A stretch of DNA of 27,573 nt from a virus. Of the stretch, positions 104 to 13,915 are shown piece by piece. The stretch lies in the IMG/VR virus record IMGVR_UViG_3300035683_000002, positions 73,117 through 100,689 of that record; one strand, given 5' to 3'. The position numbers and the translations under genes are program-made. Numbering within the stretch: position 1 is the stretch's first letter; each line of letters begins with the position of its first letter. Under the pieces are notes generated by a model that saw nothing but the letters and a program-made list of their open reading frames with translations, was not told the DNA's origin and ran no database searches.

Positions 104-1324
104 ATGGCGAAGGGCAACTGGCGGGCGCGCCTTCCGCGCGTGCTGCAGGCGATGAGCGTCACCAGCGGCGCGCAGAAGGCGGGCATGATGGCCCGCGAGT
201 TCATGCCGGGCGACAGCGCGGCGAAGCTCGCCGCCCGGGCCGCCAGCACGGCGCGGGCCATCGGGAACGCGGCGACCGGGGCCTATGTCCGCGGCGCCGA
301 TCGCGCGGCGATGCGCGGCGCCCGGAAGACCGGCGGCCAGGCGCGGGAGGGGGCCAAGGCGGCCGTCGCCGGCGCCGAGCGCGAGGCGCGGGACTTCGGG
401 AACAAGATGTTCGGCGTCGACAAGGCGCGGCCCTGGTCCGACAGCCGTCGCCTCTCGAACGTCCAGGGCGGCGTGGACGAGACCCGGGCCGCCGGGGCGG
501 GGATCGTGCGCGGCGCGACCCGGGCCGGCGTGAGGATCGGCGCCGAGCGCGGCGCGGCCGGCTACCACTTCCGCAACGGCGCGGTCGCCGGCGGCGCGGC
601 GGGCGCGGCAGCCGGCTTCGCGGCGGGCCGCAGCGGCCGCGACGAGGAGGTCCGGAAGGGCGTCGGCGCCGGCGAGCTCGGCGAGGAGCCGATGGAGCTG
701 ATGAAGGCCTGGGGCGTGCTGGCGCGCCTCGGCGGCCGCGTGGCCTCCCGCATGGGGGTGGGCCGCGGGGCGGGCATGACGGCGATGCGCGGGGCCTACC
801 GGGGCGCCGCCAACGGCGTCCGGCGCCAGGCGCCCGACAGCGCCAGGGTCGCCGCCGACGACGCCTACCGGGCCGCCCGGAACCCGGTGCTCCCGGTCGG
901 GCCCGGCACCGGCCGCCCCGTCCGCAGCCCGATGATGCGCATGACCGACGAGCGCGGCCAGCGCCTCGAGCGCGTGCCCGGCGCCGGCAACGGGGTCGAC
1001 GCCCGCGCCGCCGGCGACCGCGCCCGCGCGGCCTACATGGCCGGCGTGCCGGGCCAGGCCCGCACCCAGGGGCGCATCGCCGCCCGCTCGGCCGCCCAGG
1101 GCTTCAACGCCGGGGTCCGGCGGAAGGGTGGGATGCTCGCCGCCGGCGCAGGAGCTGCTGCAGCCGGTGGCGGTGCAGCAGCCTTCGCAGCGCCGCGCCG
1201 CCGCGAGGAGCCCGGCATGCGGAAGGCTGTCGCGCTCGCAGACATGCCGCTCGCCAAGCGCGCCCGGCTCGCGCAGGCGATCGAAGACGGAGACGCCGCA
1301 GCCATCGCGGCTCTGCTCGGGTGA
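104..1324 (+). CDS. Ala/Gly/Arg-rich head-region protein (406 aa) with two Gly-zipper modules; putative processed virion cargo
   Basis: RBS GGAG at 94-97, ATG 104. Hydrophobic GxxxG segments GAVAGGAAGAAAGFAAG and GGMLAAGAGAAAAGGGAAAFAA are each followed by R-rich/EE residues and a lysine motif (VRK, MRK). Function is inferred. Confidence 0.75.
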   Translation: MAKGNWRARLPRVLQAMSVTSGAQKAGMMAREFMPGDSAAKLAARAASTARAIGNAATGAYVRGADRAAMRGARKTGGQAREGAKAAVAGAEREARDFGNKMFGVDKARPWSDSRRLSNVQGGVDETRAAGAGIVRGATRAGVRIGAERGAAGYHFRNGAVAGGAAGAAAGFAAGRSGRDEEVRKGVGAGELGEEPMELMKAWGVLARLGGRVASRMGVGRGAGMTAMRGAYRGAANGVRRQAPDSARVAADDAYRAARNPVLPVGPGTGRPVRSPMMRMTDERGQRLERVPGAGNGVDARAAGDRARAAYMAGVPGQARTQGRIAARSAAQGFNAGVRRKGGMLAAGAGAAAAGGGAAAFAAPRRREEPGMRKAVALADMPLAKRARLAQAIEDGDAAAIAALLG

Positions 1325-1617
1325 TCGAGCTCGCGCTGGTGGTGCTGCTCTGCGGCGCCACCGACGAGATGCTCCTCGAGGCGCGCCGGATGGGCGCGCC
1401 CCACGGCCTCCGGCTCGGCGAGACCTTCACCTCCGAGGCTGGGAACGCTGTCACCTTCGAGCGCCGGCCGGCGTCCCTCTGGCCGGCCTGCCTCACGGCG
1501 ACCGTCCCGGTCCACCAGGTGGGATCACCTCGAACGGCGGGTGCTTCCCCACCGGCTCCGCCGGCCACGCGGGGAAGCGGAAGAACCCCTCCAGCATCGA
1601 CATCGCCAGCACGGTGA
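1321..1617 (+). CDS. Small hypothetical protein with hydrophobic N-terminus (98 aa)
   Basis: GTG start overlaps the upstream TGA (GTGA coupling); N-terminus MIELALVVLLC. The 3' 125 bp overlap the convergent minus-strand gene, so the C-terminal part is doubtful. Confidence 0.4.
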   Translation: MIELALVVLLCGATDEMLLEARRMGAPHGLRLGETFTSEAGNAVTFERRPASLWPACLTATVPVHQVGSPRTAGASPPAPPATRGSGRTPPASTSPAR

Positions 1618-2200
1618 GCAGCATCGCGTAGCGGTCCCGGTCGAGCGCCTGCAGGTCCTCCACCGTCGGCGACTTGGCGCCGAACAGCCCGTCGGTGATC
1701 TCGTTCAGCCGCTCCAGCGCCCGCTCATCCGACGGGTATCGCAGGTGAGGGCGCTCCGCGGTGGTCGCCTCCATGAAGGTCAGGACGCTTTCCGGGATCG
1801 GGATGTCGATCCCGAAGTAGTCGAAGCTGCGGTTCAGCGGCTCGGCCTCGCGCATGACGACTTCATGCATGGCGAGCATGTTCGCCAGGAGCGTCGGCAC
1901 CGCCGCCTCCGCCTCCTGCCGCGTCGGCCAGGGTGAACGCACGGGTGTGCCGAAGCAGTCGGCGACGCCGGCGGGCACGCTCTTCAGCTTCACGTCGCAC
2001 AGCCAGCCGCCGAGCTCCCCGCGATTGATCTCCACGAAGGCGAAGTTCTCCTCGGCGAAGTAGCGCGCCTGCGTTCGCGCGGTCTCGGTGAAGAACTCCG
2101 GATCGCCGGGCCGCATGCGCGCCAGCTCCCGCGCCTTCGGCAGCGAGCGCCGCAGCAGCGCCTCCGCCATCCGCCGGTCAATGCGCGCCTGGCTCGCCAT
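1493..2200 (-). CDS. Hypothetical protein (235 aa), antisense moron-like insertion in the head module
   Basis: Globular amino-acid composition (many F/E/L/W), unlike the shadow ORFs. Minus-strand GGAG lies 7 nt before the ATG, and no credible + strand ORF covers 1620-2250. Confidence 0.8.
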   Translation of the reverse strand: MASQARIDRRMAEALLRRSLPKARELARMRPGDPEFFTETARTQARYFAEENFAFVEINRGELGGWLCDVKLKSVPAGVADCFGTPVRSPWPTRQEAEAAVPTLLANMLAMHEVVMREAEPLNRSFDYFGIDIPIPESVLTFMEATTAERPHLRYPSDERALERLNEITDGLFGAKSPTVEDLQALDRDRYAMLLTVLAMSMLEGFFRFPAWPAEPVGKHPPFEVIPPGGPGRSP

Positions 2201-2258
2201 CCACCGCTCCCTTCCAGCGCGTCATGCGCCGCCTGCCCCCATGCCCCGGAGGCTCCCC

Positions 2259-3440
2259 ATGCAGTTCTTCATCCCGCTCGCCAAGATCGACGAGGAGAAG
2301 CGCCTCGTGATCGGCCGCGCCGTCCAGGAGACGGTCGACCGCGCCAACGAGATCCTCGACTACGCCTCCTCCAAGGCGAACTTCGAGACCTGGTCGAAGA
2401 CCATCGAGGAGGCCTCGGGCGGCCTATCGAAGGGCAACCTGCGGTCCATGCACAACCCCCGCTCCGCGAGCGGGAAGATCGTCGACATCGCTTTCGACGA
2501 CGACGCCCGGGCGATCGACATCGTCGCCAAGGTCGTTGACGACCAGGACTGGAAGAAGGTCGTCGAGGGGGTCTTCACCGGGTTCTCGGTGGGCGGCGGC
2601 TACGGGAGGAAGTGGAAGGACCCGGAGACGGGCGCCACCCGCTACACCGCCAAGCCCTCCGAGATCTCCCTCGTCGACCTGCCCTGCATCCACACCGCGC
2701 GGATCGCGGAGTTGCACAAGGCCGACGGCACCCTCTGCAAGGTCTACCTGAGGGGCCGCCCCCGGACCTTCGCCGAGCTCGCGGAGCTGGAGAAGGCGGC
2801 GCCGCCCGCGCGGCCGCGCACCTTCGCCGAGCTCGCCAAGGGCTGGAACGCCTCCGACCACCCGCGCGAGCACGACGGGAAGTTCGCGAAGAAGACCGGC
2901 GAGAACACCGGCATCGGCGTCGGAGCGGTGCTCGGCGGCGCGGCCGGCGCCGCGGCGGGGATGAGGTGGGGCCCGAGCCTCGGCGAGCGGGCCGGCGAGC
3001 GCCTCGCCGGCGGCGGGGCCAAGGGCATCGTCGGCGGGCTGCAGGGCCGGATGGCCGGTGGGAAGTATGGGCCGGCCGTCCTCGGCGTGGCCGGCCTCGT
3101 CGGCGGCGCGCTGGCGGGCGGTTTCCTCGGGGAGGCGGTTGATCGGCGCGGGCGGAATCGCCGGGCTGACGCCGCCTACCAGGCCAAAGCGCAGTCCGGG
3201 CGGATCACCCCGGAGGAGGCGGCCGAGGCCTCGGGCCTCTACCGCCGCAGCAAGGGCTACGGCCTCGAGCAGCAGCGCGCGAAGGAAGCCGATCGGCCGC
3301 TGGGCATCCGCAGCAAGGCCCAGATGGAAGAGTTCGAGGCCGAGTGGAAGCGCCGCGAGGGGCAGTCCCGCATCGTGGAGGTCGACGGCGAGCGACGTGA
3401 GCGCCGCGGCCCACTTGAGCGCCGCGCGGAGAGCCGCTGA
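2259..3440 (+). CDS. Prohead maturation serine protease (HK97/XkdF-like S78 fold) fused to a C-terminal Gly-zipper extension (393 aa)
   Basis: Start MQFFIPLAK at 2259 with GGAGG at 2248-2252. Catalytic-type motifs GNLRSMH (His), FTGFSVGG (Ser) and EISLVDLP. The protease domain ends near LHKADG and is followed by about 235 extra aa. Confidence 0.88.
   Translation: MQFFIPLAKIDEEKRLVIGRAVQETVDRANEILDYASSKANFETWSKTIEEASGGLSKGNLRSMHNPRSASGKIVDIAFDDDARAIDIVAKVVDDQDWKKVVEGVFTGFSVGGGYGRKWKDPETGATRYTAKPSEISLVDLPCIHTARIAELHKADGTLCKVYLRGRPRTFAELAELEKAAPPARPRTFAELAKGWNASDHPREHDGKFAKKTGENTGIGVGAVLGGAAGAAAGMRWGPSLGERAGERLAGGGAKGIVGGLQGRMAGGKYGPAVLGVAGLVGGALAGGFLGEAVDRRGRNRRADAAYQAKAQSGRITPEEAAEASGLYRRSKGYGLEQQRAKEADRPLGIRSKAQMEEFEAEWKRREGQSRIVEVDGERRERRGPLERRAESR
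2766..2836 (+). repeat. 17-bp direct repeat ACCTTCGCCGAGCTCGC (2766-2782, 2820-2836) within a duplicated RPRTFAELA peptide
   Basis: Seen directly; protein reads RPRTFAELAELEK ... RPRTFAELAK. Confidence 0.85.
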
Positions 3441-6400
3441 TGTCCCGCCCGGTGTTCGACGCCGAGACCATCGGCGAGCTGCGCCAGCGCGTCATGGCGC
3501 ACAACGAGGCCGGCCATGCCCGCACCGGGCTGACCGACCTCAAAAAGATCTTCGCACGGGGCTGGGCAGGCGATGCGCCGAAGACCCGTGCCCTCGGCCA
3601 GGTGGACCGCCACCTGGCGCGCCTAGCGAAGAACACGGGCGATTTCGACGAGACGAAGCACCGCCGCGACGGCGACGGGAAGTTCGCCCCACAGGGCCGC
3701 GCGGCCGCCTTCAGCGACGTGCGCTCCCGCCAGGCCGACCGCCAGCTGCGCGACGAGAACAGCGGCTATGCCGCGTCGCAGACGGGCGTCATCCCCGAGA
3801 CCCGCTTCAGCCAGTTCGGCCCGCTGGCCGGTGCGGTCGCCGGCGTCGCCGCCGGCGCGCTGCGCGGTGCCTTCGACGGCGGCGGCCGGCGCTCCCGCGC
3901 GGTGAACCTCGCGATCGGCCGAGGCGCCGCCCGCGTCGTCGACACCGTCGCCGGTAGAGTCCAAGCGGTCCCCGGCATGGCGGCGGACGCGGCCAATGCC
4001 GGTCTCGCGGCCGCGGCGCGCGGCGTGGCCCGGCGGGCCGGCGAGGCCGATCCGCGCGGCTTCGGGCCGGCGGTCAAGGCCCGGGCGGAGCGCTTCGCGG
4101 CCCGCGCCGAGGCCCGGATCCCGGATGAGGTGGGCAAGGGGCAGCGCACGAAGGCGCGCCGCGCGACCGCCCGCGAGAACCTCGGCCTCGTCACCGGCGA
4201 GGCGCTCGACCTGGCCGACCGCGCCGTCATGGCGGCGCCGCGCTTCGTGTCGCGGCACCTGACGGCGAAAGCCAAGCGCATGGACGCCGCCCTCGCCGCG
4301 CGGGGCGCCTCCGACGCCACCCGCCGCGCGGTGCGCGCGGGCCTCGCGATCAAGCGCCCGCTCGCCGCCGGCGCCGTCGGCGCCGTCGTGCCGGGCGCCC
4401 TCTACGGCATCACGAACATGGAGACGATGACAGTGGCCGGTCCCTACCTGGACGCGCTCCTCCCCCGCCGCGTCGAGAAGGGGACCCGCGCCGAGCTCCT
4501 GACGAAGGTCGCGGCGACGCCGGCGAGCCGCGAGGCGCTGGCGAAGATCTCGATGGCGGGCGTGAGGAGCGCGGCGCTCGCGGTCGGGGGCGCGGTGGCG
4601 CGGATGCCGCGCATGGCGATCGCGAGGATGCCGACGCTGCGGGCGCCGAAGCCGCCCGAGCCGAAGCTCTCGTCTAACCAGGCGCGAGGCCGCGAGCGCG
4701 CGGCGACGATGATGGCGCGCAACCCGAACATCGTCCGCGGTGCGGGCAAGGCCGGGCTGATCGGCGCCGCCGCGGCAGGTGCCGGGGGCCTCGGCGCGGC
4801 GGCGGGCTACGGCGCGCGCGAGTACTACCGCGACGAGAACGGCCAGTTCACCTCGAAGGAGCGCGCGGTCCAGCCGGGGATGCGCGGCGCCCTGCAGAGC
4901 GTGGGCGACTTCATCGCGGACAACCCGGTGGGGGTCGGCGCGGCCGCCGGCCTCGTCGCCGGCGCGCTCGGCGCTCGCTCGGCCATCGCCCGCGGCAATC
5001 GCCGCGTCATCCGCGAGATGGCCGACGGCGTGGCGGAGGGCATGACCCGCCGCCTCGCGGTGGTCGGCCGCTTCGCGAAGGCGGCCGAGGAGGCGAAGAG
5101 CAAGGGGGCGTTCGACAAGGTCAACGCCCGGGTGGAGCGGGCCGGCGACGCCATGCGGGCCGCGCGCGACGCCGGCCCCGAGCGCTGGAACGAGTGGAAC
5201 GTCGACAGCGCGCTGCAGACGCGGGTGCGCGGGATGATCCGCTCGGACGCCTTCTGGAAGGCCGAGCCGGTGAAGGCCAACAAGAGGAAGGCGATGGACG
5301 CGCTGCGCGAGAGCGGCGACATCGATCAGCTGAAGCCGCTGGTGAGCGAGGCCGGCTGGACCCGGATCGAGGCGCTGCGCGGCCAGGCGACGAAGCAGAA
5401 GGCGGCCTACAACGCCACCGTCGCGGGCTTCCGCCAGAAGGCGGCCGACGCGATTGAGGACCACAGGGGCAAGTCCAGCCGCGCGGACGACGCGGCCGAT
5501 GCCGCCGAGGCGATCGAGAAGCGGCTCGCGGAGCTGCGCGAGGCCCCCGCGCCGACCACCGCGGCGAAGAAGATCAAGCTCGTCGACACCGAGACCGCGC
5601 TGAAGGCCGAGCTGAAGACGGCCGAGGCGGCCCGCAAGGCGGCCAACGAGACGCGCGACGAGGCGGCCAAGCTCGCCGACGCCTACAAGCAGGTGCTCGC
5701 GAATCCCGGCAAGCAGGTCGACGGCATCAGCTTCCCGGCCGGCGCCGATCCCTGGAACGTCAAGGCGACGCTGCGGCCGCTGCCGTCGAACGTCGACATG
5801 ACCGACCTGCTCGACAAGATGAAGAGCGATCTGCTGGGCGACCTGCAGGGAAAGATCGCCGGGCGGGTGAAGGCGCGGCAGGACGAGGCGCGCCTCATCG
5901 CCACGGCGACGATCGGCGCGCTGCGCCAGGCCGGCGCCGAGCCGGACGGCATCGCCACCCGGGCGATCAACACCTTCGCCGCCCGCCTCTCCGGCCCGAT
6001 GGCGGCCGCGCGGCGCGACATCCGCGCCGCCGGTGGCGTGGTGAGCCGGGCGGTGGAGCGGAAGCTCGGCAGCGCGCCGGGCGCGGTGTCGGCCTATGTG
6101 GGCGACGCGACCAAGCGGGCGCGCAACCTCGTCTACGGGCCGAAGCCGGAGCCGGACGCCGCGGGCAAGGTGCAGCCACGCGCGGGCATTCTGCCGAAGA
6201 TGGCGCGCGCCGCGGCGGACAACCCCCGCGCGGCGATCCTGACGGGGATCACCGGTGCAACCGGCTCCGGCCTGGTCACCTGGGACTCTGCTGACGGCTC
6301 GCTCGACCTGCAGCTGAAGAGCCCGGCCGACATCTGGCGGCGCCTCTCCTCGCCGAAGACGCGGCCGGCGCCGATCATCCGGCCCTTCCACCTCGGTGAC

Positions 6401-8248
6401 ACCCGTTTCCAGCACACGATCGAGGGCCTCGTCGTCACCAACGACAAGAACCAGCGCGTGCTGCTGACCGGCAAGCGGGTGTTCGCGGATGGGCGCGAGG
6501 AGGAGATCCCGCCGCTCACGCCGCTGAAGGACGCGCTCGACTTCTCGGCGGGGCTGCGCAACCGCCAGGGCGGCGGCGGCGGTGGCGGCGGGCAGGGGGC
6601 CCAGCTCAGCGTCGGCAACGACCAGGACAAGGGCACCTGGTCGGCGGCGCTGGGCCGGCTGCGGAACGCGGGCAAGCTCGCCTCCTACGGCGAGGGCGAC
6701 TGGATCTTCTCGGCGCGGAACGACGGCCAGCACGACAGCCAGGACATCAGCGACGCGGACAAGCTGCAGAACGCGCTGCACGCGCAGGCCGCGGCGAAGG
6801 CGAAGGGCGGCAGCTTCGGCTCCGGCTTCGGCAATCCGGGCGAGTGGCACGCCCAGCTCGCCTCGATCGTCGCCGCGCCGGAGAGCAGCATCCTGACGCT
6901 GAAGCAGCGCCAGCGCCTGCTGCTCGGCTCGCAGACCCAGGCCGGCCTCTTCTCCGGGCAGCTGCGGGGCGACGTGATGAAGGCGACCAGCGGCGCTGAC
7001 ACCGCCCGGGCCTTCATGTCCGAGGTCGGCACCGAGCGGCGCGTGCCCTTCGTCTTCAACAACGACCAGCTCGCGAACATGAAGCGCGCGGTCTTCGCGG
7101 TGAACGAGACCCTCGGCTCCGCGAAGATGAACGACGCCCAGCTGCAGACGGTCTTCGACCGGCTGGAGCGCCACCGCGGCGGCGGCGGCCAGCCCGGTGG
7201 CGGGCAGCGCCCGGCGGGCGGCGGCGGCGGCCAGCCCGCAGGCTCTGGCACACCCGGCCCGGCGAGCGGCGGCGCTCGGGCGGCAGGCGGACCGCCGCGG
7301 GCCTCCAGGCAGAGCGCCGATCCCGCGCCCCGCGATCGGATGTCCTACCTCGCCGACGCGGTCACCTTCCGCGAGACCGCCTGGCCGATCACCCAACGGG
7401 ACAGCAAGCGCTTCCTCGCCATCCCGGTCGGCGTCGAGGTCGAGTTCAACAAGGAAGAGGAGGCGCTGCGCCAGCAGCACCCGACCTGGGACGACGACGC
7501 GATCTGGACCGCGGCCACGCGGCGCATCAACGACCGCAGCAACAACCTCACCTTCGGCAAGGCGACGCAGGCGGGGCTGCTGCGGAAGTTCGACGAGGCG
7601 CGCCACGCCCGCGCGCCGCGCGGTTCCGACCGGGGCGGGGAGTTCTCCTCCCGCGCGGGCGGTGCGGCGGCGAGTGCCGCGGTGATGGCGCGCGGTGCCG
7701 CGCCGGTGCGGCCGCCGGGGCGGGAGAACGACGAGCGCTCCTTCTTCGAGCCGACGCGCCTCGGCGCCACGGTCGGCGGCGTCGCCGGCGGCAACGCGGG
7801 CTGGATGCTCGCCGAGCGCTTCATGCCGGGCCCGCTCCGGCGGCTCGGCACCACTGGGCGCCTCGCCTCCCGCCTCGGCGGCATGGCCTCCCGGCTCGGC
7901 TACAAGCTCAGCGGGTCCATGGCCGGTGGCCTGGCGGGCGAGACGGTCGGCGACGCCGCCGGGGCCGGTGTCTACCGCGCGGCCGGCCGACGGGCGCCAG
8001 CGCCCTATGAGCCGCCGGAGCGCGGCGCGGGCGAGGAGGTGGCGCGCACCGCCGGCTCCTTCGCCGGCCTGGCCGCCGGCACCGCCCTCGGCCGAGGCCG
8101 CGGCCGCGCGAGCGCCTTCGGCATCGGCGTCGGCACCACCCTCGCCGGCGAGGAGCTCGCCGGTGCAGCCCAACGGATCGCCGAGCGCCACTACGGCGCC
8201 GAGCGAGGGGGGCGCGCCCGCGCCGCCCTGAACGGGGGTCGCCAGTGA
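3440..8248 (+). CDS. Giant modular head-region protein (1602 aa): Gly-zippers, coiled coil, poly-Gly-linked domains; putative capsid-packaged polyprotein
   Basis: ATG overlaps the protease stop (TGATG). Long ORF with GC-rich third codon positions. Contains three R-(x)n-G-x-F motifs, about 8 GxxxG hydrophobic segments, an Ala/Lys/Glu coiled coil (~5380-5700) and Gly linkers (~6570, ~7180-7290). No recognisable enzyme motif. Confidence 0.85.
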   Translation: MSRPVFDAETIGELRQRVMAHNEAGHARTGLTDLKKIFARGWAGDAPKTRALGQVDRHLARLAKNTGDFDETKHRRDGDGKFAPQGRAAAFSDVRSRQADRQLRDENSGYAASQTGVIPETRFSQFGPLAGAVAGVAAGALRGAFDGGGRRSRAVNLAIGRGAARVVDTVAGRVQAVPGMAADAANAGLAAAARGVARRAGEADPRGFGPAVKARAERFAARAEARIPDEVGKGQRTKARRATARENLGLVTGEALDLADRAVMAAPRFVSRHLTAKAKRMDAALAARGASDATRRAVRAGLAIKRPLAAGAVGAVVPGALYGITNMETMTVAGPYLDALLPRRVEKGTRAELLTKVAATPASREALAKISMAGVRSAALAVGGAVARMPRMAIARMPTLRAPKPPEPKLSSNQARGRERAATMMARNPNIVRGAGKAGLIGAAAAGAGGLGAAAGYGAREYYRDENGQFTSKERAVQPGMRGALQSVGDFIADNPVGVGAAAGLVAGALGARSAIARGNRRVIREMADGVAEGMTRRLAVVGRFAKAAEEAKSKGAFDKVNARVERAGDAMRAARDAGPERWNEWNVDSALQTRVRGMIRSDAFWKAEPVKANKRKAMDALRESGDIDQLKPLVSEAGWTRIEALRGQATKQKAAYNATVAGFRQKAADAIEDHRGKSSRADDAADAAEAIEKRLAELREAPAPTTAAKKIKLVDTETALKAELKTAEAARKAANETRDEAAKLADAYKQVLANPGKQVDGISFPAGADPWNVKATLRPLPSNVDMTDLLDKMKSDLLGDLQGKIAGRVKARQDEARLIATATIGALRQAGAEPDGIATRAINTFAARLSGPMAAARRDIRAAGGVVSRAVERKLGSAPGAVSAYVGDATKRARNLVYGPKPEPDAAGKVQPRAGILPKMARAAADNPRAAILTGITGATGSGLVTWDSADGSLDLQLKSPADIWRRLSSPKTRPAPIIRPFHLGDTRFQHTIEGLVVTNDKNQRVLLTGKRVFADGREEEIPPLTPLKDALDFSAGLRNRQGGGGGGGGQGAQLSVGNDQDKGTWSAALGRLRNAGKLASYGEGDWIFSARNDGQHDSQDISDADKLQNALHAQAAAKAKGGSFGSGFGNPGEWHAQLASIVAAPESSILTLKQRQRLLLGSQTQAGLFSGQLRGDVMKATSGADTARAFMSEVGTERRVPFVFNNDQLANMKRAVFAVNETLGSAKMNDAQLQTVFDRLERHRGGGGQPGGGQRPAGGGGGQPAGSGTPGPASGGARAAGGPPRASRQSADPAPRDRMSYLADAVTFRETAWPITQRDSKRFLAIPVGVEVEFNKEEEALRQQHPTWDDDAIWTAATRRINDRSNNLTFGKATQAGLLRKFDEARHARAPRGSDRGGEFSSRAGGAAASAAVMARGAAPVRPPGRENDERSFFEPTRLGATVGGVAGGNAGWMLAERFMPGPLRRLGTTGRLASRLGGMASRLGYKLSGSMAGGLAGETVGDAAGAGVYRAAGRRAPAPYEPPERGAGEEVARTAGSFAGLAAGTALGRGRGRASAFGIGVGTTLAGEELAGAAQRIAERHYGAERGGRARAALNGGRQ

Positions 8249-8397
8249 GCGACGCGCCCGCGCCAGCCGCGCCAGCTCCGACGACAGCCGGAGCCTGGAC
8301 GCAATCCACCAATGCCTTCGCGGGGCTGACCGCGACCGACCTCGCGCGCAGGCGCAGGCGAAGACAGCCAAAGCCAACCGAACACGCGTCCACCCCA

Positions 8398-8427
8398 GGG
8401 GGCAGGCCAGAGGCCGGCCCCCTTTTT
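8398..8427 (+). terminator. Rho-independent terminator-like hairpin upstream of the scaffold ATG
   Basis: GGGGGC-A-GGC-CAGAG-GCC-G-GCCCCC followed by TTTTT. Confidence 0.6.
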
Positions 8428-8445
8428 CGTTCCCGGAGACCCCCG

Positions 8446-9843
8446 ATGAGCAAGGCCTACACGGACATCCTCGAGCTGCTCGAGACGAGCGTCGGCGAGA
8501 TCGTCACCAGTGACGCGGAGAACCGCGACGAGCTGCTGAAGACCACCTTCGGCGAGGCCCGCGAGGCGCTCGCCAAGCGCGCGGCCGAGGACCTGCCCGT
8601 GCCGGTCGGCGAGGCCGACGCGCTGACGCTGCTGGCCGACCGCATCGGCGGGCTGGAGGAGGTCGTCGAGGCGATCGAGGGCGAGGCCTGCGGCGAGGGC
8701 GTGGTCGTCTCCGTCGCGGCGGTCGGCCTGGCGAAGCGCTTCCTGGCGCATGGCGGCCTGCTGCTGCGTGCGATCGCCTCCGAGCAGGTGGCGCCGCTCG
8801 AGGAGGGCGAGACCGAGGCCCCCGAGGGCATGAGCCTGCTGAAGTTCGCCTTCGGTGAGGGCGAGGGCGAGGAGATCCTGCTCAAGTCCGCGCTGCCGGA
8901 CGAATACGCCCCGCTGGTCGCGGCGCCCGAGGAGATCGCGGCGATGCTCGCCGAGCTCGGCGCCGACCTCATGGAGGATGCCGGCGTGGATCTCGGCCCG
9001 CTCGCCAAGGCGGCGCGCGAGGAGGACGAAGACGAGGACGGTGAGGGCGACGAAGGCGAAGGCGAGGGCGAAGGCGAGGGTGAAGGCGAGGGCGAGGGCG
9101 GCGATGACGTCGACCTCGACGGCGACGACAGCCCGATGGAGGCAGTCGCCAAGCTCGCCACGATGATCCTCATCCAGGTGGACGCGATCCGCCAGGAGAT
9201 GGGCCCCGACGCCGGCGGCGCGGCGATGGAGGGCGGCGAGGGCGAGGGCGGCGAGGGCGAGGGCCCCGACGAGCTCACCGCGCTCGACGCCATCGCGCAG
9301 CACGCCGCCTTCATCGCGGTGCAGGCCGACGCGCTGGAGAGCGTGCTCAACGACGGCGATCTCGGCGCAATGGAGGGCGAGGGCCAGCAGCAGCAGCAGC
9401 CGCCGCGCGCCCCCGCGCCCACCGGCCGCGCCGGCGAGGGCGAGGATGACGGCGCCGCGGCCGAGGCGGAGGAGAAGAACAAGAAGCCCTTCGGCAAGGG
9501 CGTCGACGCCGGCGAGCTCGCCAAGGCGATCGCGGCGAGCCCCGAGGTGGTGGAGCTGCGCAAGCGCGCCGATCGCGCCGAGGTGGCGGAGCGGGAGATG
9601 GCCGAGATGCGCGAGCGCCTGGCGAAGCTCGAGCGTCAGCCCGTCGATCCGAAGGGCGTTCTCTCCGGCCTCGTCACCCTGACGAAGCAGGCCGAGAACG
9701 GTGGCGAGGGCGAGGGCGAGGCGAAGACCACCGACGAGCTCGCGCAGGACCTCGCGAAGCGCGACCCGCAAGAGGTGGTGCACGCCATGTTCAAAATCGC
9801 AGGGGCCAACCCGATCCCCATGCGCACGACCTGGGGCGGCTGA
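8446..9843 (+). CDS. Acidic capsid scaffolding protein (465 aa); possible in-frame longer form from GTG 8245
   Basis: GGAG RBS at 8435-8438. Extremely Glu/Asp-rich, with a C-terminal coiled coil ending LAKLERQPVDPKG. Lies between the protease and the MCP. By my count 15 of 20 lysines are in an [LVMF]-x-K context. Confidence 0.75.
   Translation: MSKAYTDILELLETSVGEIVTSDAENRDELLKTTFGEAREALAKRAAEDLPVPVGEADALTLLADRIGGLEEVVEAIEGEACGEGVVVSVAAVGLAKRFLAHGGLLLRAIASEQVAPLEEGETEAPEGMSLLKFAFGEGEGEEILLKSALPDEYAPLVAAPEEIAAMLAELGADLMEDAGVDLGPLAKAAREEDEDEDGEGDEGEGEGEGEGEGEGEGGDDVDLDGDDSPMEAVAKLATMILIQVDAIRQEMGPDAGGAAMEGGEGEGGEGEGPDELTALDAIAQHAAFIAVQADALESVLNDGDLGAMEGEGQQQQQPPRAPAPTGRAGEGEDDGAAAEAEEKNKKPFGKGVDAGELAKAIAASPEVVELRKRADRAEVAEREMAEMRERLAKLERQPVDPKGVLSGLVTLTKQAENGGEGEGEAKTTDELAQDLAKRDPQEVVHAMFKIAGANPIPMRTTWGG
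9019..9108 (+). repeat. Degenerate hexamer repeat (GGCGAR/GAYGAR) encoding an (ED)n(GE)n acidic tract
   Basis: Protein reads EEDEDEDGEGDEGEGEGEGEGEGEGEGGDD. Confidence 0.8.
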
Positions 9844-10171
9844 TCCAGGGCATCAGGATCCGCTCGGCCATGGCCCCGTGAGGGGAGCGGCCGAACGGCG
9901 GCGGTCCACCGGAGCCCGAAATCCGGTCCCGATCGAGGGCATCGACACGCTCGAGGAGGCGCGACCGCCGTCCGCTCCCCGCGGAGAGGGCGGCCCCGCC
10001 ACGTCCGGCTGAGCACCGGACCCGCTACCTGACCGCGACGCAGTGGGGGCAACCGAACGCGCAATCCAGCGCGTGCGGCGCCTCGTGCTGCGCGCGGTCC
10101 TGGCCCGTCTAAGCCGTTGGGCCGCGGCGATCTCAGCCCCCCGTCATCTGGGGGGCCGGAACCCCGACCAA
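9844..10171 (+). ncRNA. Candidate structured RNA / cis-regulatory leader of the major capsid gene
   Basis: 328-nt intergenic gap almost filled with helices, e.g. 9895-9906/9963-9971, 9908-9927, 10003-10021, 10031-10043/10088-10099, 10057-10074, 10136-10156. GNRA loops GTGA and GCAA. Not matched to any known family. Confidence 0.4.
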
Positions 10172-11689
10172 ATGAATACCGTGGACGTCAACGCGTCGTT
10201 CGACGCGATCAAGGCTGCGCTGAGCAAGGCGCTGCCGCAGTCCGAGCTGCAGAAGGCCTGGACGCAGAGCCAGAACCCCACCACCGGGCTGACGATGTAC
10301 AGCCTGGAGGCGCCCGCCAAGATGGTGGTGCCGCAGGTCACCCCGTTGAGGAATCGCATCCCGCGCGTGACCGGCGGGCAGGGCATCCAGGCCAACTGGC
10401 GCGCAATCACCGCGCTGTCCACCGCCATGCCGGGCATCGGCGTGAGCGAGGGTCGCCGTGGTGGCCTCGTCGAGGGCGTGGTCACCGAGTACTACGCGAA
10501 GTTCGTGCAGCTCGGCGTCGAGAGCGCCGTGTCGTTCGAGGCGCAGCTCGCGGGCGAGGGCTTCGATGACGTGAAGGCTCGCGCCGTCCAGGGCATGCTG
10601 ATGCACCTGATGATGGGTGAGGAGCAGGTCATCCTCGCGGGTCAGGGCACCTTCGGTCTCGGCGTGACGCCGACGCCGGTGCTGGCCACCTCTGTTTCCG
10701 GTGGTACGCTCGCGGCGGCAACCAACGTCTTCGTGCGCGTCGTCGCCCTCACGCTCGAGGGCTACATGGCGGCGAAGGCCGGCATGGTGCGCGGCTCCGT
10801 GGCGCGGTCCAACGCCGACGGCAGCACCGACAACTACGGCTCGGGCGCGGCGGGCGCGTCGAACTCCGCCACCGTGGCGACGGGCGGCGCGGGTGCGGCG
10901 CACAGCGTGACGGCGTCGGTGACGCCGGTGCGCGGCGCGATGGCCTATGCCTGGTTCGTGGGCTCGGTCGACGGCTCCGCCGGCAACCTCCGCCTGCACG
11001 ACGTGACGACGATCAACTCGACCGTCATCCGTGCGCTGCCGGGCGGCGGCAACCTCGCGCTGCCGGCCGACCTCGTCGGCAACGACCGCTCCGCCAACGG
11101 CCTGGTGCACGATGGCTACATCGGCATCGCGGCGCGCGCGGGCAGCGGCTCGTACTTCCGCCACCTCGACACCGGCGTCGCCGGCGTTGGGTCGCCGCTG
11201 ACGAGCGACGGCGCGGGCGGCATCGTGGAGTTCGACGATGCGCTGCGCTGGTTCTGGGACAACCTGCGCCTCTCGCCGAGCGAGATCTGGGTGTCGAGCG
11301 AGCAGGCGGCGTCCATGCGCAAGCTCATTCTCGCGGCCGGCTCTGCGGCGACGCAGCGCTTCACCTTCGTGTCGGCGCAGGGCGACCTGAAGGGCGGCGG
11401 CAAGGTGCGCGGCTACATCAACGTGTTCGGCATGGGTGCGGCGCCCGAAATCCCGATCGAGAGCCACCCGTACCTGCCGCCGGGCACGGTGCTGTTCCTG
11501 ACGCACCAGCTGCCCTACCCGGTGTCCAACATCGGGCAGACGTCGCGAATTCTTTGCAGGCGCGATTATCACCAGCTGGACTGGCCGCTCCGGACCCGTA
11601 TGCACGAGATGGGTGCATATACCGATCAGGTCCTGCAGCACTACTTCCCGCCCAGCATCGGCGTCATTTCCAACATCGCGAAGGGCTAG
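10172..11689 (+). CDS. Major capsid protein (HK97-like fold, 505 aa) with an inserted beta-rich domain
   Basis: Motifs GLTMYSLEAPAK, PQVTPLRNRIPRV, GVSEGRRG, MGEEQVIL and IPIESHPYLPPGT. Follows the scaffold and precedes a strong terminator. Short propeptide ends LSK...LQK. Ser/Thr/Val/Ala-rich insert at ~10660-11090. Confidence 0.88.
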   Translation: MNTVDVNASFDAIKAALSKALPQSELQKAWTQSQNPTTGLTMYSLEAPAKMVVPQVTPLRNRIPRVTGGQGIQANWRAITALSTAMPGIGVSEGRRGGLVEGVVTEYYAKFVQLGVESAVSFEAQLAGEGFDDVKARAVQGMLMHLMMGEEQVILAGQGTFGLGVTPTPVLATSVSGGTLAAATNVFVRVVALTLEGYMAAKAGMVRGSVARSNADGSTDNYGSGAAGASNSATVATGGAGAAHSVTASVTPVRGAMAYAWFVGSVDGSAGNLRLHDVTTINSTVIRALPGGGNLALPADLVGNDRSANGLVHDGYIGIAARAGSGSYFRHLDTGVAGVGSPLTSDGAGGIVEFDDALRWFWDNLRLSPSEIWVSSEQAASMRKLILAAGSAATQRFTFVSAQGDLKGGGKVRGYINVFGMGAAPEIPIESHPYLPPGTVLFLTHQLPYPVSNIGQTSRILCRRDYHQLDWPLRTRMHEMGAYTDQVLQHYFPPSIGVISNIAKG

Positions 11690-13258: not shown

Positions 13259-13915
13259 ATGGCCGAGGATTTCGGCGCCTCGGTCGGCCAGTGGGTCGAC
13301 CGGGCAGGCGGGCGGGCCCGGGAGGCCTTCCTCGCCATCGGCATCGACGTCCTCGCCCGGGTGAAGGAGCTCACCCCCGTCGACACCGGCAATCTCCGGG
13401 CCGGCTGGCAGCTCATGCGCCAGGGGGAGGAACTCCCCGTCGACCGCGAGCTGCTGAAGGACGCCGGCGGCCTCGGCGCAGGCCTCGCCGGCGGCTGGGC
13501 GGGCGCGAGGGCCGGCGCCGCGGCCGGCGCGCGGATCGGCCTCGCGGTCGGTGGCGCGGGCGGCGCCGCGATCGGCGGCACGATCGGCGGCCTCGCCGGC
13601 GGCCTCGCCGGATCCCTCGCGGCCGAAGAGGCGACGGGCGCTGCGATCGACGCGGCGATGCCGGCCGGCACCATCGGCGGCGCCTTCGGCCCGGTCACCG
13701 ACACCCGCCCCGTGGCCGAGGTGCAGCTCGGCGAGACGCTCGTCGTGGTGAACCCCGTCGTCTACGCGCGGCGCATCGAGTTCGGCTGGGAGATCGAACG
13801 GGTGGACGGCACCACTACCACCGTCAGGGGCGCCGGGATGATGGCCCAGACGATGAGCGAGCTCCCCGCCATCGCGGACCGCGCGGTCAAGCGCGTGCTC
13901 GGAGAAGGCGCATGA
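13259..13915 (+). CDS. HK97 gp10-family tail completion / neck protein with an internal Gly-zipper insertion
   Basis: TPVDTGNLRAGW and NPVVYARRIEFG...GMM family motifs, separated by a ~75-aa Gly/Ala tract. Confidence 0.82.
   Translation: MAEDFGASVGQWVDRAGGRAREAFLAIGIDVLARVKELTPVDTGNLRAGWQLMRQGEELPVDRELLKDAGGLGAGLAGGWAGARAGAAAGARIGLAVGGAGGAAIGGTIGGLAGGLAGSLAAEEATGAAIDAAMPAGTIGGAFGPVTDTRPVAEVQLGETLVVVNPVVYARRIEFGWEIERVDGTTTTVRGAGMMAQTMSELPAIADRAVKRVLGEGA

Follow-up and report, generated by a model that had tools for sequence, protein, structure and literature searches.

A recurring L-x-K motif in the head proteins of a GC-rich siphophage, a probable cleavage site of its prohead serine protease

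In phage T4 and in phiKZ and SPN3US, one short motif is common to the capsid, scaffold and packaged proteins, and ejection proteins lose their propeptides. The motif is L/I-x-E for the T4 protease gp21 and S/A/G-x-E for the phiKZ and SPN3US proteases. The established cleavage site of HK97 gp5 is F-N-K103/S104 (PMC10275583), and a 2026 report (PMC13517437, citing Duda 2013 and Zivanovic 2014) states that cleavage by the S78 proteases of both HK97 and T5 takes place after lysine. Here we describe a lysine motif in a stretch of 27,573 nucleotides (the window) that comprises the siphophage head and tail modules of a virus with a GC content of ~74%. The window corresponds to positions 73117-100689 of IMG/VR record IMGVR_UViG_3300035683_000002, a complete phage record of 100,689 bp with direct terminal repeats. 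A lysine with leucine at position -2 (L-x-K), often paired, recurs in the head proteins; it is genuine, conserved and far beyond chance, and it probably shows where the prohead serine protease of this phage cuts.

The locus shares several features with HK97. Its protease is, like HK97 gp4, a serine protease with His then Ser at nearly equal positions, and the predicted capsid site, like that of gp5, has Lys at P1, a hydrophobic residue at P3 and a small residue at P1' in an unstructured stretch ahead of the N-arm. The HK97 scaffolding domain also contains scattered E-L-x-K and D-L-x-K sites. Unlike in HK97, the scaffold is a separate protein here (fused to the protease in relatives) rather than part of the capsid protein, and the predicted propeptide is only ~28 residues long, unlike the delta-domain. 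T5 pb8 reads H-L-K159|A-V-N-Q-S at its site, after a scaffolding domain of 159 residues; A-V-N-Q-S resembles the A-W-T-Q-S found here, whereas in T5 the scaffolding domain forms part of the capsid protein. T4 gp21 has the best-matching fold, and P3 together with a charged P1 defines the site in both systems, but P1 is Lys here and not Glu as for gp21 and the phiKZ and SPN3US proteases, and the present phage is a siphophage with a genome of ~100 kb. Like the polyvalent MuF-type head proteins, a multi-domain packaged protein with InPase and MuF domains is encoded beside the portal gene. Unlike in those proteins, its domain boundaries carry the L-x-K motif of the capsid and scaffold proteins, which suggests that this MuF polyprotein is processed by the prohead protease rather than delivered as one chain.

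A first-pass annotation of the window had pointed out a 12-residue paired-lysine motif, phi-x-K-x6-L-x-K (phi, a hydrophobic residue), in the head proteins, and all the peptides and coordinates that it named were correct on re-examination. The strict copies are LSKALPQSELQK at 10220-10255 in the major capsid protein, FGKGVDAGELAK at 9490-9525 in the scaffold, and VEKGTRAELLTK (4472-4507) and FGKATQAGLLRK (7553-7588) in a giant protein of 1602 residues. A 406-residue protein contains a degenerate form, VRKGVGAGELGE..LMK, at 650-706 and a looser MRK-x8-LAK pair at 1217-1258, and the protease contains a looser LEK-x12-LAK pair. The expectation for these five head proteins is 0.088 strict copies, against the four observed, and 20,000 composition-preserving shuffles never reached four. 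Throughout the 100,689-bp genome there are five strict copies, every one in a head-internal protein; the fifth, FLKAIGAGDLAK, is the end of a 672-residue protein encoded 5' of the window. Since the pattern was defined after the data had been seen, chance or a compositional artefact has to be considered. The shuffles, and the independent conservation of the pattern in hundreds of homologues, reduce the probability of that explanation to almost nothing.

The motif is also unevenly distributed among proteins. Fifteen of the 20 scaffold lysines have L, V, M, F or I at -2, in accordance with the earlier count (binomial P ~1e-6; 15 of 21 if translation starts at GTG 8245), while no more than 5 of the 20 have one of these residues at +2. 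The comparison of head with tail proteins that the annotation had proposed was borne out clearly for L-x-K and weakly for phi-x-K. The latter accounts for 33% of the lysines in head-internal proteins and 25% in the rest of the genome (P = 0.03), whereas L-x-K accounts for 39 of 216 (18%) and 38 of 463 (8%), respectively (P = 2e-4), and for only 6 of 119 (5%) in the tail proteins (P = 4e-4 against head-internal). As in the T4-type systems, a single short motif recurs in the capsid protein, the scaffold, the protease and the internal proteins and is under-represented in tail proteins and in the mature part of the shell.

The enrichment is specific for lysine and for direction. Leucine stands at -2 of 18% of the lysines in the head-internal proteins of this genome, against a background of 7%, and it occurs at +2 of only 5% of lysines and at -2 of only 6% of arginines. 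The corresponding values in the relatives' sample, a non-redundant set of 57 protease, scaffold and giant proteins of related loci, are 20.5% for Lys, a 2.6-fold enrichment, and 8.8% for Arg (P = 1e-27), with 6.6% for Glu and 9.6% for Asp. A hydrophobic residue of any kind precedes 42% of the lysines at -2 in this sample (background 23%), positions -3 and -4 are enriched in Asp and Glu, and position +1 in Ala and Ser. An uncut structural or binding element, such as an amphipathic or coiled-coil periodicity or a contact motif for the shell or portal, could also generate a recurring motif. The scaffolds are helical, the K-to-K distances in the relatives show a periodicity of ~3.5 residues with peaks at ~8-9 and 11-12 and a dip at 10, and the LSK site of the capsid protein lies at the end of a predicted helix. 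However, the periodicity of an amphipathic helix or coiled coil should affect Arg as much as Lys and +2 as much as -2, and neither is seen, so this origin was rejected as the main cause: the enrichment is confined to -2 and to Lys and does not extend to Arg, Glu or Asp. With the key capsid site in a stretch predicted to be disordered and other sites at domain boundaries, we regard an uncut element as improbable.

The pairing itself was examined in the same sample. Enrichment of phi-x-K pairs extends over the whole range of spacings from 4 to 15; x6 is the highest of these, yet without significant excess over the neighbouring spacings. At matching positions of the scaffold and giant orthologues both lysines are retained with a spacer of ~4-16 residues, and the x6 pair of the capsid protein is retained in only 28 of 118 homologues. 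Because the spacer varies and x6 is not significantly favoured, the 12-residue form is best read as two neighbouring single sites; judged from the alignments, the basic unit is [D/E]-L-x-K followed by A/S/G, with no rigid 12-mer. The annotation had gone further and interpreted the 12-mer as a portable double-cut linker. As a distinct module, such a linker would release a nonapeptide and could have spread between genes by recombination. The five strict x6 copies in one genome, all head-internal, favour such a linker, as do the relatives' pairs, where Ala follows the first lysine in 23 of 46 and Asp or Glu precedes the Leu in 28 of 46, but these preferences equal those of single sites, and a rigid x6 spacing found no support as a conserved module in the relatives. 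The annotation had also drawn attention to the DNA of two copies, 656-680 in the 406-residue protein and 9496-9520 in the scaffold, which do differ by a single base. The seven shared residues have identical codons with P ~0.02 under the codon bias of this genome, before correction for multiple pairs, so that the identity of 24 of 25 bases speaks only weakly for the linker; it is largely codon bias, and recombination is not required as its source. A distinct, recombination-spread linker is possible but on the whole doubtful.

The major capsid protein (10172..11689, plus strand; PHROG 13692, E = 8e-119) has an AlphaFold2 (AF2) model with a mean predicted local distance difference test (pLDDT) score of 79, and a Foldseek search with the model matched the capsid proteins of SU10, Pa223, SPO1, HK97 and D3, indicating an HK97 fold. 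The two sites are LSK at 10220-10228 and LQK at 10247-10255, and the predicted scissile bond lies between 10255 and 10256. The predicted mature N-terminus, AWTQSQNP, would thus follow K28. Residues 6-20 form a low-confidence predicted helix that ends at LSK, and residues 21-44 are predicted to be disordered. K28 is the first invariant residue across 40 diverse capsid homologues. A site can be recognised in 118 homologues. In all of them P3 of the lysine that precedes the conserved N-arm is hydrophobic (Leu in 110), and 114 have Ala (86), Ser (19), Thr (6) or Gly (3) at P1'. The segment upstream of the site varies from 11 to 68 residues and cannot be aligned. Phi-x-K comprises 76% of its other lysines, and 86% of the propeptide lysines, compared with 17% in the mature part. 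The site is retained at less than 30% identity in phages of other phyla, as I-K-K|A in Mufasa8, I-A-K|T in THSA-485A and F-K-K|T in MMB025.

The acidic scaffold-like protein (8245..9843, plus strand) has 15 of its lysines in phi-x-K, and its C-terminal part is homologous to the protease-scaffold fusions of other loci. Ten orthologues have its paired site (9490-9525, plus strand) in the same place, with spacers of ~4-9 residues. The probable start is GTG 8245, which overlaps the stop of the giant gene. ATG 8446, a possible internal start, had been considered as the scaffold start on the basis of weak GC content at third codon positions (GC3) and a hairpin with a T-run noticed by eye. The in-frame extension at 8245-8445, 5' of this ATG, has a counterpart in all type-B loci, likewise overlapping the stop of the giant gene and in most of them ~56-67 codons long. 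Since the extension is conserved, 8245 is the likely scaffold start, and ATG 8446 was rejected in that role.

This extension encodes a copy of the capsid N-arm, located here at ~8293-8343. The match of the copy to the capsid protein of the same locus was significant in five of ten loci (z = 4-15), and in most loci where it is detectable it begins 1-2 residues past the predicted capsid cut. The copies of loci L005 and L031 start no more than 2-3 residues from the N-terminus of the scaffold itself, and in THSA-485A and MMB025 a similar copy lies inside the protease-scaffold fusion, with a lysine before it. The position of the copy points to the residue after K28 as the natural start of the N-arm element, and the copy may serve as a substrate mimic or as an N-arm mimic. 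Copies or extensions were noted in L003, L005, L006, L031 and other type-B loci, and also in L087 and L088. Inside the conserved extension there is an imperfect GC-rich hairpin with a T5 run (8398-8427), followed by GGAGA and ATG 8446 (8434-8448). A scan for consensus terminators did not call this hairpin; the arrangement could yield long and short scaffold products.

The prohead serine protease (2259..3440, plus strand; PHROG 9427 head maturation protease, E = 2.5e-11) has GGAGG 7 nt 5' of its ATG at 2259 and consists of a catalytic domain of ~150 residues and a C-terminal extension with glycine zippers. The candidate catalytic residues, H66 (2451-2453) and S111 (2586-2588), both on the plus strand, are invariant in 37 homologues, and S111 lies within G-F-S-x-G-G, which aligns with the G-M-S-V-G motif of HK97 gp4. 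The core of the AF2 model has pLDDT values above 90, and its best fold match in the PDB is T4 gp21 (5jbl; probability 1.0, E = 6e-4), followed by the proteases of human cytomegalovirus (HCMV), Kaposi's sarcoma-associated herpesvirus (KSHV), Epstein-Barr virus (EBV) and herpes simplex virus (HSV). On the evidence of the model, the protein has the assemblin-like fold and the conserved His-then-Ser order of clan SH (S78 with HK97 gp4, S77 with T4 gp21 and S21 with assemblin). The domain ends with L-H-K then A-D-G (L-H-K at 2712..2720, plus strand), a predicted self-cleavage site just beyond the confident core of the model. Its lysine, K155, is invariant in 37 of 37 homologues and the Gly three residues further on is nearly so, whereas the homologues cannot be aligned downstream of K155. 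The protease domain of THSA-485A and MMB025 likewise ends in phi-x-K. Further on, the LEK and LAK of the looser pair (2787..2840, plus strand) lie in a duplicated RPRTFAELA linker that is partly conserved in L015 and L031.

Taken together, these observations make cleavage by the phage's own prohead protease the best-supported explanation of the motif, and a probable one. The argument draws on an enrichment that is specific for lysine and for direction, on sites that distant relatives keep at matching positions and that lie at domain boundaries and in disordered linkers, and on the presence of an assemblin-fold protease, the closest studied relatives of which cut after lysine. It also rests on the scaffold N-arm copy, which starts right after the predicted cut, and on the invariant lysine that ends the protease domain. 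The motif, its statistics and conservation, and the folds of the protease and the capsid protein are shown by the sequences and models, and from them we infer the cleavage, the enzyme responsible and the exact bond. The sites so deduced would lie in flexible linkers and have Lys at P1; P3 would be Leu or a different hydrophobic residue, P4 frequently acidic (Asp or Glu) and P1' small (Ala, Ser or Gly). The rule of cutting after lysine was already known from HK97 and T5, and the sequences analysed here suggest a sharper consensus.

Several results weigh against this interpretation. The protease scored below threshold with the S78 profiles TIGR01543 (E = 0.012, 15.7 bits versus a cut-off of 59) and PF14550 (E = 0.08, 13.4 bits versus 24), and no significant match to TIGR01543, PF04586 or PF14550 was obtained. 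Its hhalign comparison with HK97 gp4 reached a probability of only 5%. We therefore describe the protease as S78-like by fold and motifs rather than as a proven member of S78. In the T5 site Leu is at P2, unlike the P3 position here, and the giant protein taken alone shows no overall enrichment of phi-x-K (16 of 71 lysines). The periodicity of the K-to-K distances implies that helical structure probably contributes to the pair pattern. A literature search for proteomics of the related phages Polewnik, Strzyga, Mufasa8 and THSA-485A found none. Routine tryptic proteomics would be blind to such cuts, as trypsin yields identical peptide ends.

The internal proteins carry candidate sites of the same type. 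The head-internal giant protein (3440..8248, plus strand; GC3 of at least 0.9 throughout; function unassigned) has LAK at 3623-3631, the VEK...LTK pair at 4472-4507, LAK at 4538-4546 and the FGK...LRK pair at 7553-7588, all on the plus strand. Its orthologues, 1493-1665 residues long, occur in 8 related loci; they conserve an L-x-K ahead of an F-D-E-x2-H-x-R-x3-G-x-F motif, as well as FPRRV-x-K and V-L-x-K with a variable spacer between them. In both the scaffold and the giant orthologues, sites are kept at matching positions while the flanks have diverged. The Ala/Gly/Arg-rich 406-residue protein with glycine-zipper segments (104..1324, plus strand; recognised in a GC3 frame plot) has candidate sites VRK at 650-658, LMK at 698-706, MRK at 1217-1225 and LAK at 1250-1258 on the plus strand. 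It matches no family in Pfam or PHROG, and a homologue is absent from 80 related loci. No family or ESM Atlas match was found for the giant protein, and searches of Pfam, NCBIfam, PDB sequences and the ESM Atlas with the 406-residue, giant and scaffold proteins gave no match.

Upstream of the window, the 1148-residue MuF-type polyprotein has L-x-K sites 11-12 residues from each end of its InPase domain (PF18823, residues 477-613), and an H-E-L-T-H segment lies between its L-x-K sites. The latter raises the question of another enzyme, either this zincin-like (HExxH) segment or a trypsin-like protease of the host. Such an enzyme would also fit the fact that sequence comparison does not establish the phage protease as a member of S78, the family for which cutting after Lys is reported. 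On the other hand, Pfam recognises no peptidase domain in the MuF protein. The motif is conserved next to this protease without exception, both in loci with a protease-scaffold fusion and in distant phages, and the invariant lysine lies exactly at the end of the protease domain. A different enzyme is accordingly very improbable, clearly more so than an uncut structural element. The 672-residue and MuF proteins also have a repeated module in common, L-x-K then R-T-P-G-T-P-L-S-E-A-E-L (L085, 11746-17201; genome, 67745-73209).

If the prohead protease does cut at these sites, maturation could proceed as follows. The protease would be incorporated into the prohead and would release itself by a cut after the invariant lysine at the end of its catalytic domain. 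The scaffold would then be cut at many sites so that its fragments could exit the shell, and the 28-residue capsid propeptide would be removed. Finally, the packaged internal proteins (the 1602-residue and 406-residue proteins, the upstream MuF polyprotein and the 672-residue protein) would be cut at their inter-domain linkers, the 12-residue paired form acting as two single sites side by side. Confirmation would allow [D/E]-L-x-K then A/S/G to predict the boundaries of mature proteins from sequence alone, covering capsid propeptides, scaffold fragments, protease self-release and packaged cargo domains. It would also extend the "cut after lysine" behaviour of HK97 and T5 to a distant assemblin-fold branch and add a preference at P3 and P4.

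Motifs resembling F-x-E-x2-H-x-R-x3-G-x-F were noted at 2856-2885, 3659-3688, 4820-4840 and 7589-7650. In the giant orthologues the N-terminal copies lie 6-14 residues after an L-x-K site, and internal copies instead follow glycine-zipper segments. A broader proposal is that L-x-K, this motif and the scaffold N-arm copy constitute a general "package and release" grammar, which we consider unlikely, although somewhat less so than an uncut element. Under such a grammar, domains flanked by the cassette would be loaded into the prohead and freed by the maturation protease, more than 10 processed cargo products (pyrophosphatase-like, zincin-like and glycine-zipper) would arise from a few polyprotein genes, and the paired form would be a true double-cut linker.

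The phage belongs to a large, almost wholly uncultivated family with more than 1,399 capsid homologues, among whose members are phages of ~100 kb with internal proteins of 1500-1660 residues. Its closest isolated relatives are the Brevundimonas phages Polewnik and Strzyga (capsid identity 45%), and remoter ones, at 27-29%, are the Arthrobacter phages Mufasa8 and Sonali, the Thermoanaerobacterium phage THSA-485A and the Alicyclobacillus phage MMB025. The commonest architecture among the 80 related loci is a protease-scaffold fusion immediately 5' of the capsid gene. The subclade that includes this phage has a short protease, a protein of 1500-1660 residues and a separate scaffold, and several of its members are on contigs of 82-111 kb. 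The usual fusion is split, with the 1500-1660-residue protein between the halves, in L004/L005, L012, L015, L016, L022, L024, L031 and L042.

The terminase, portal, 672-residue and MuF-type (InPase and Mu F domains) genes lie 5' of the window. Within it, a gene for 235 residues on the minus strand (1493-2200; supported by GC3 phase) is located between the genes for the 406-residue protein and the protease, and a search for a family match to it found none. Adaptor, neck, tube, tape-measure and lambda-like tip genes follow 3' of the capsid gene on the plus strand. Glycine-zipper-like G/A-rich segments are present at 104-1324 (406-residue protein), 2900-3150 (protease extension) and 3800-3880 (giant protein), and a similar G/A-rich insertion occurs at 13480-13640 in the HK97-gp10-like neck protein.

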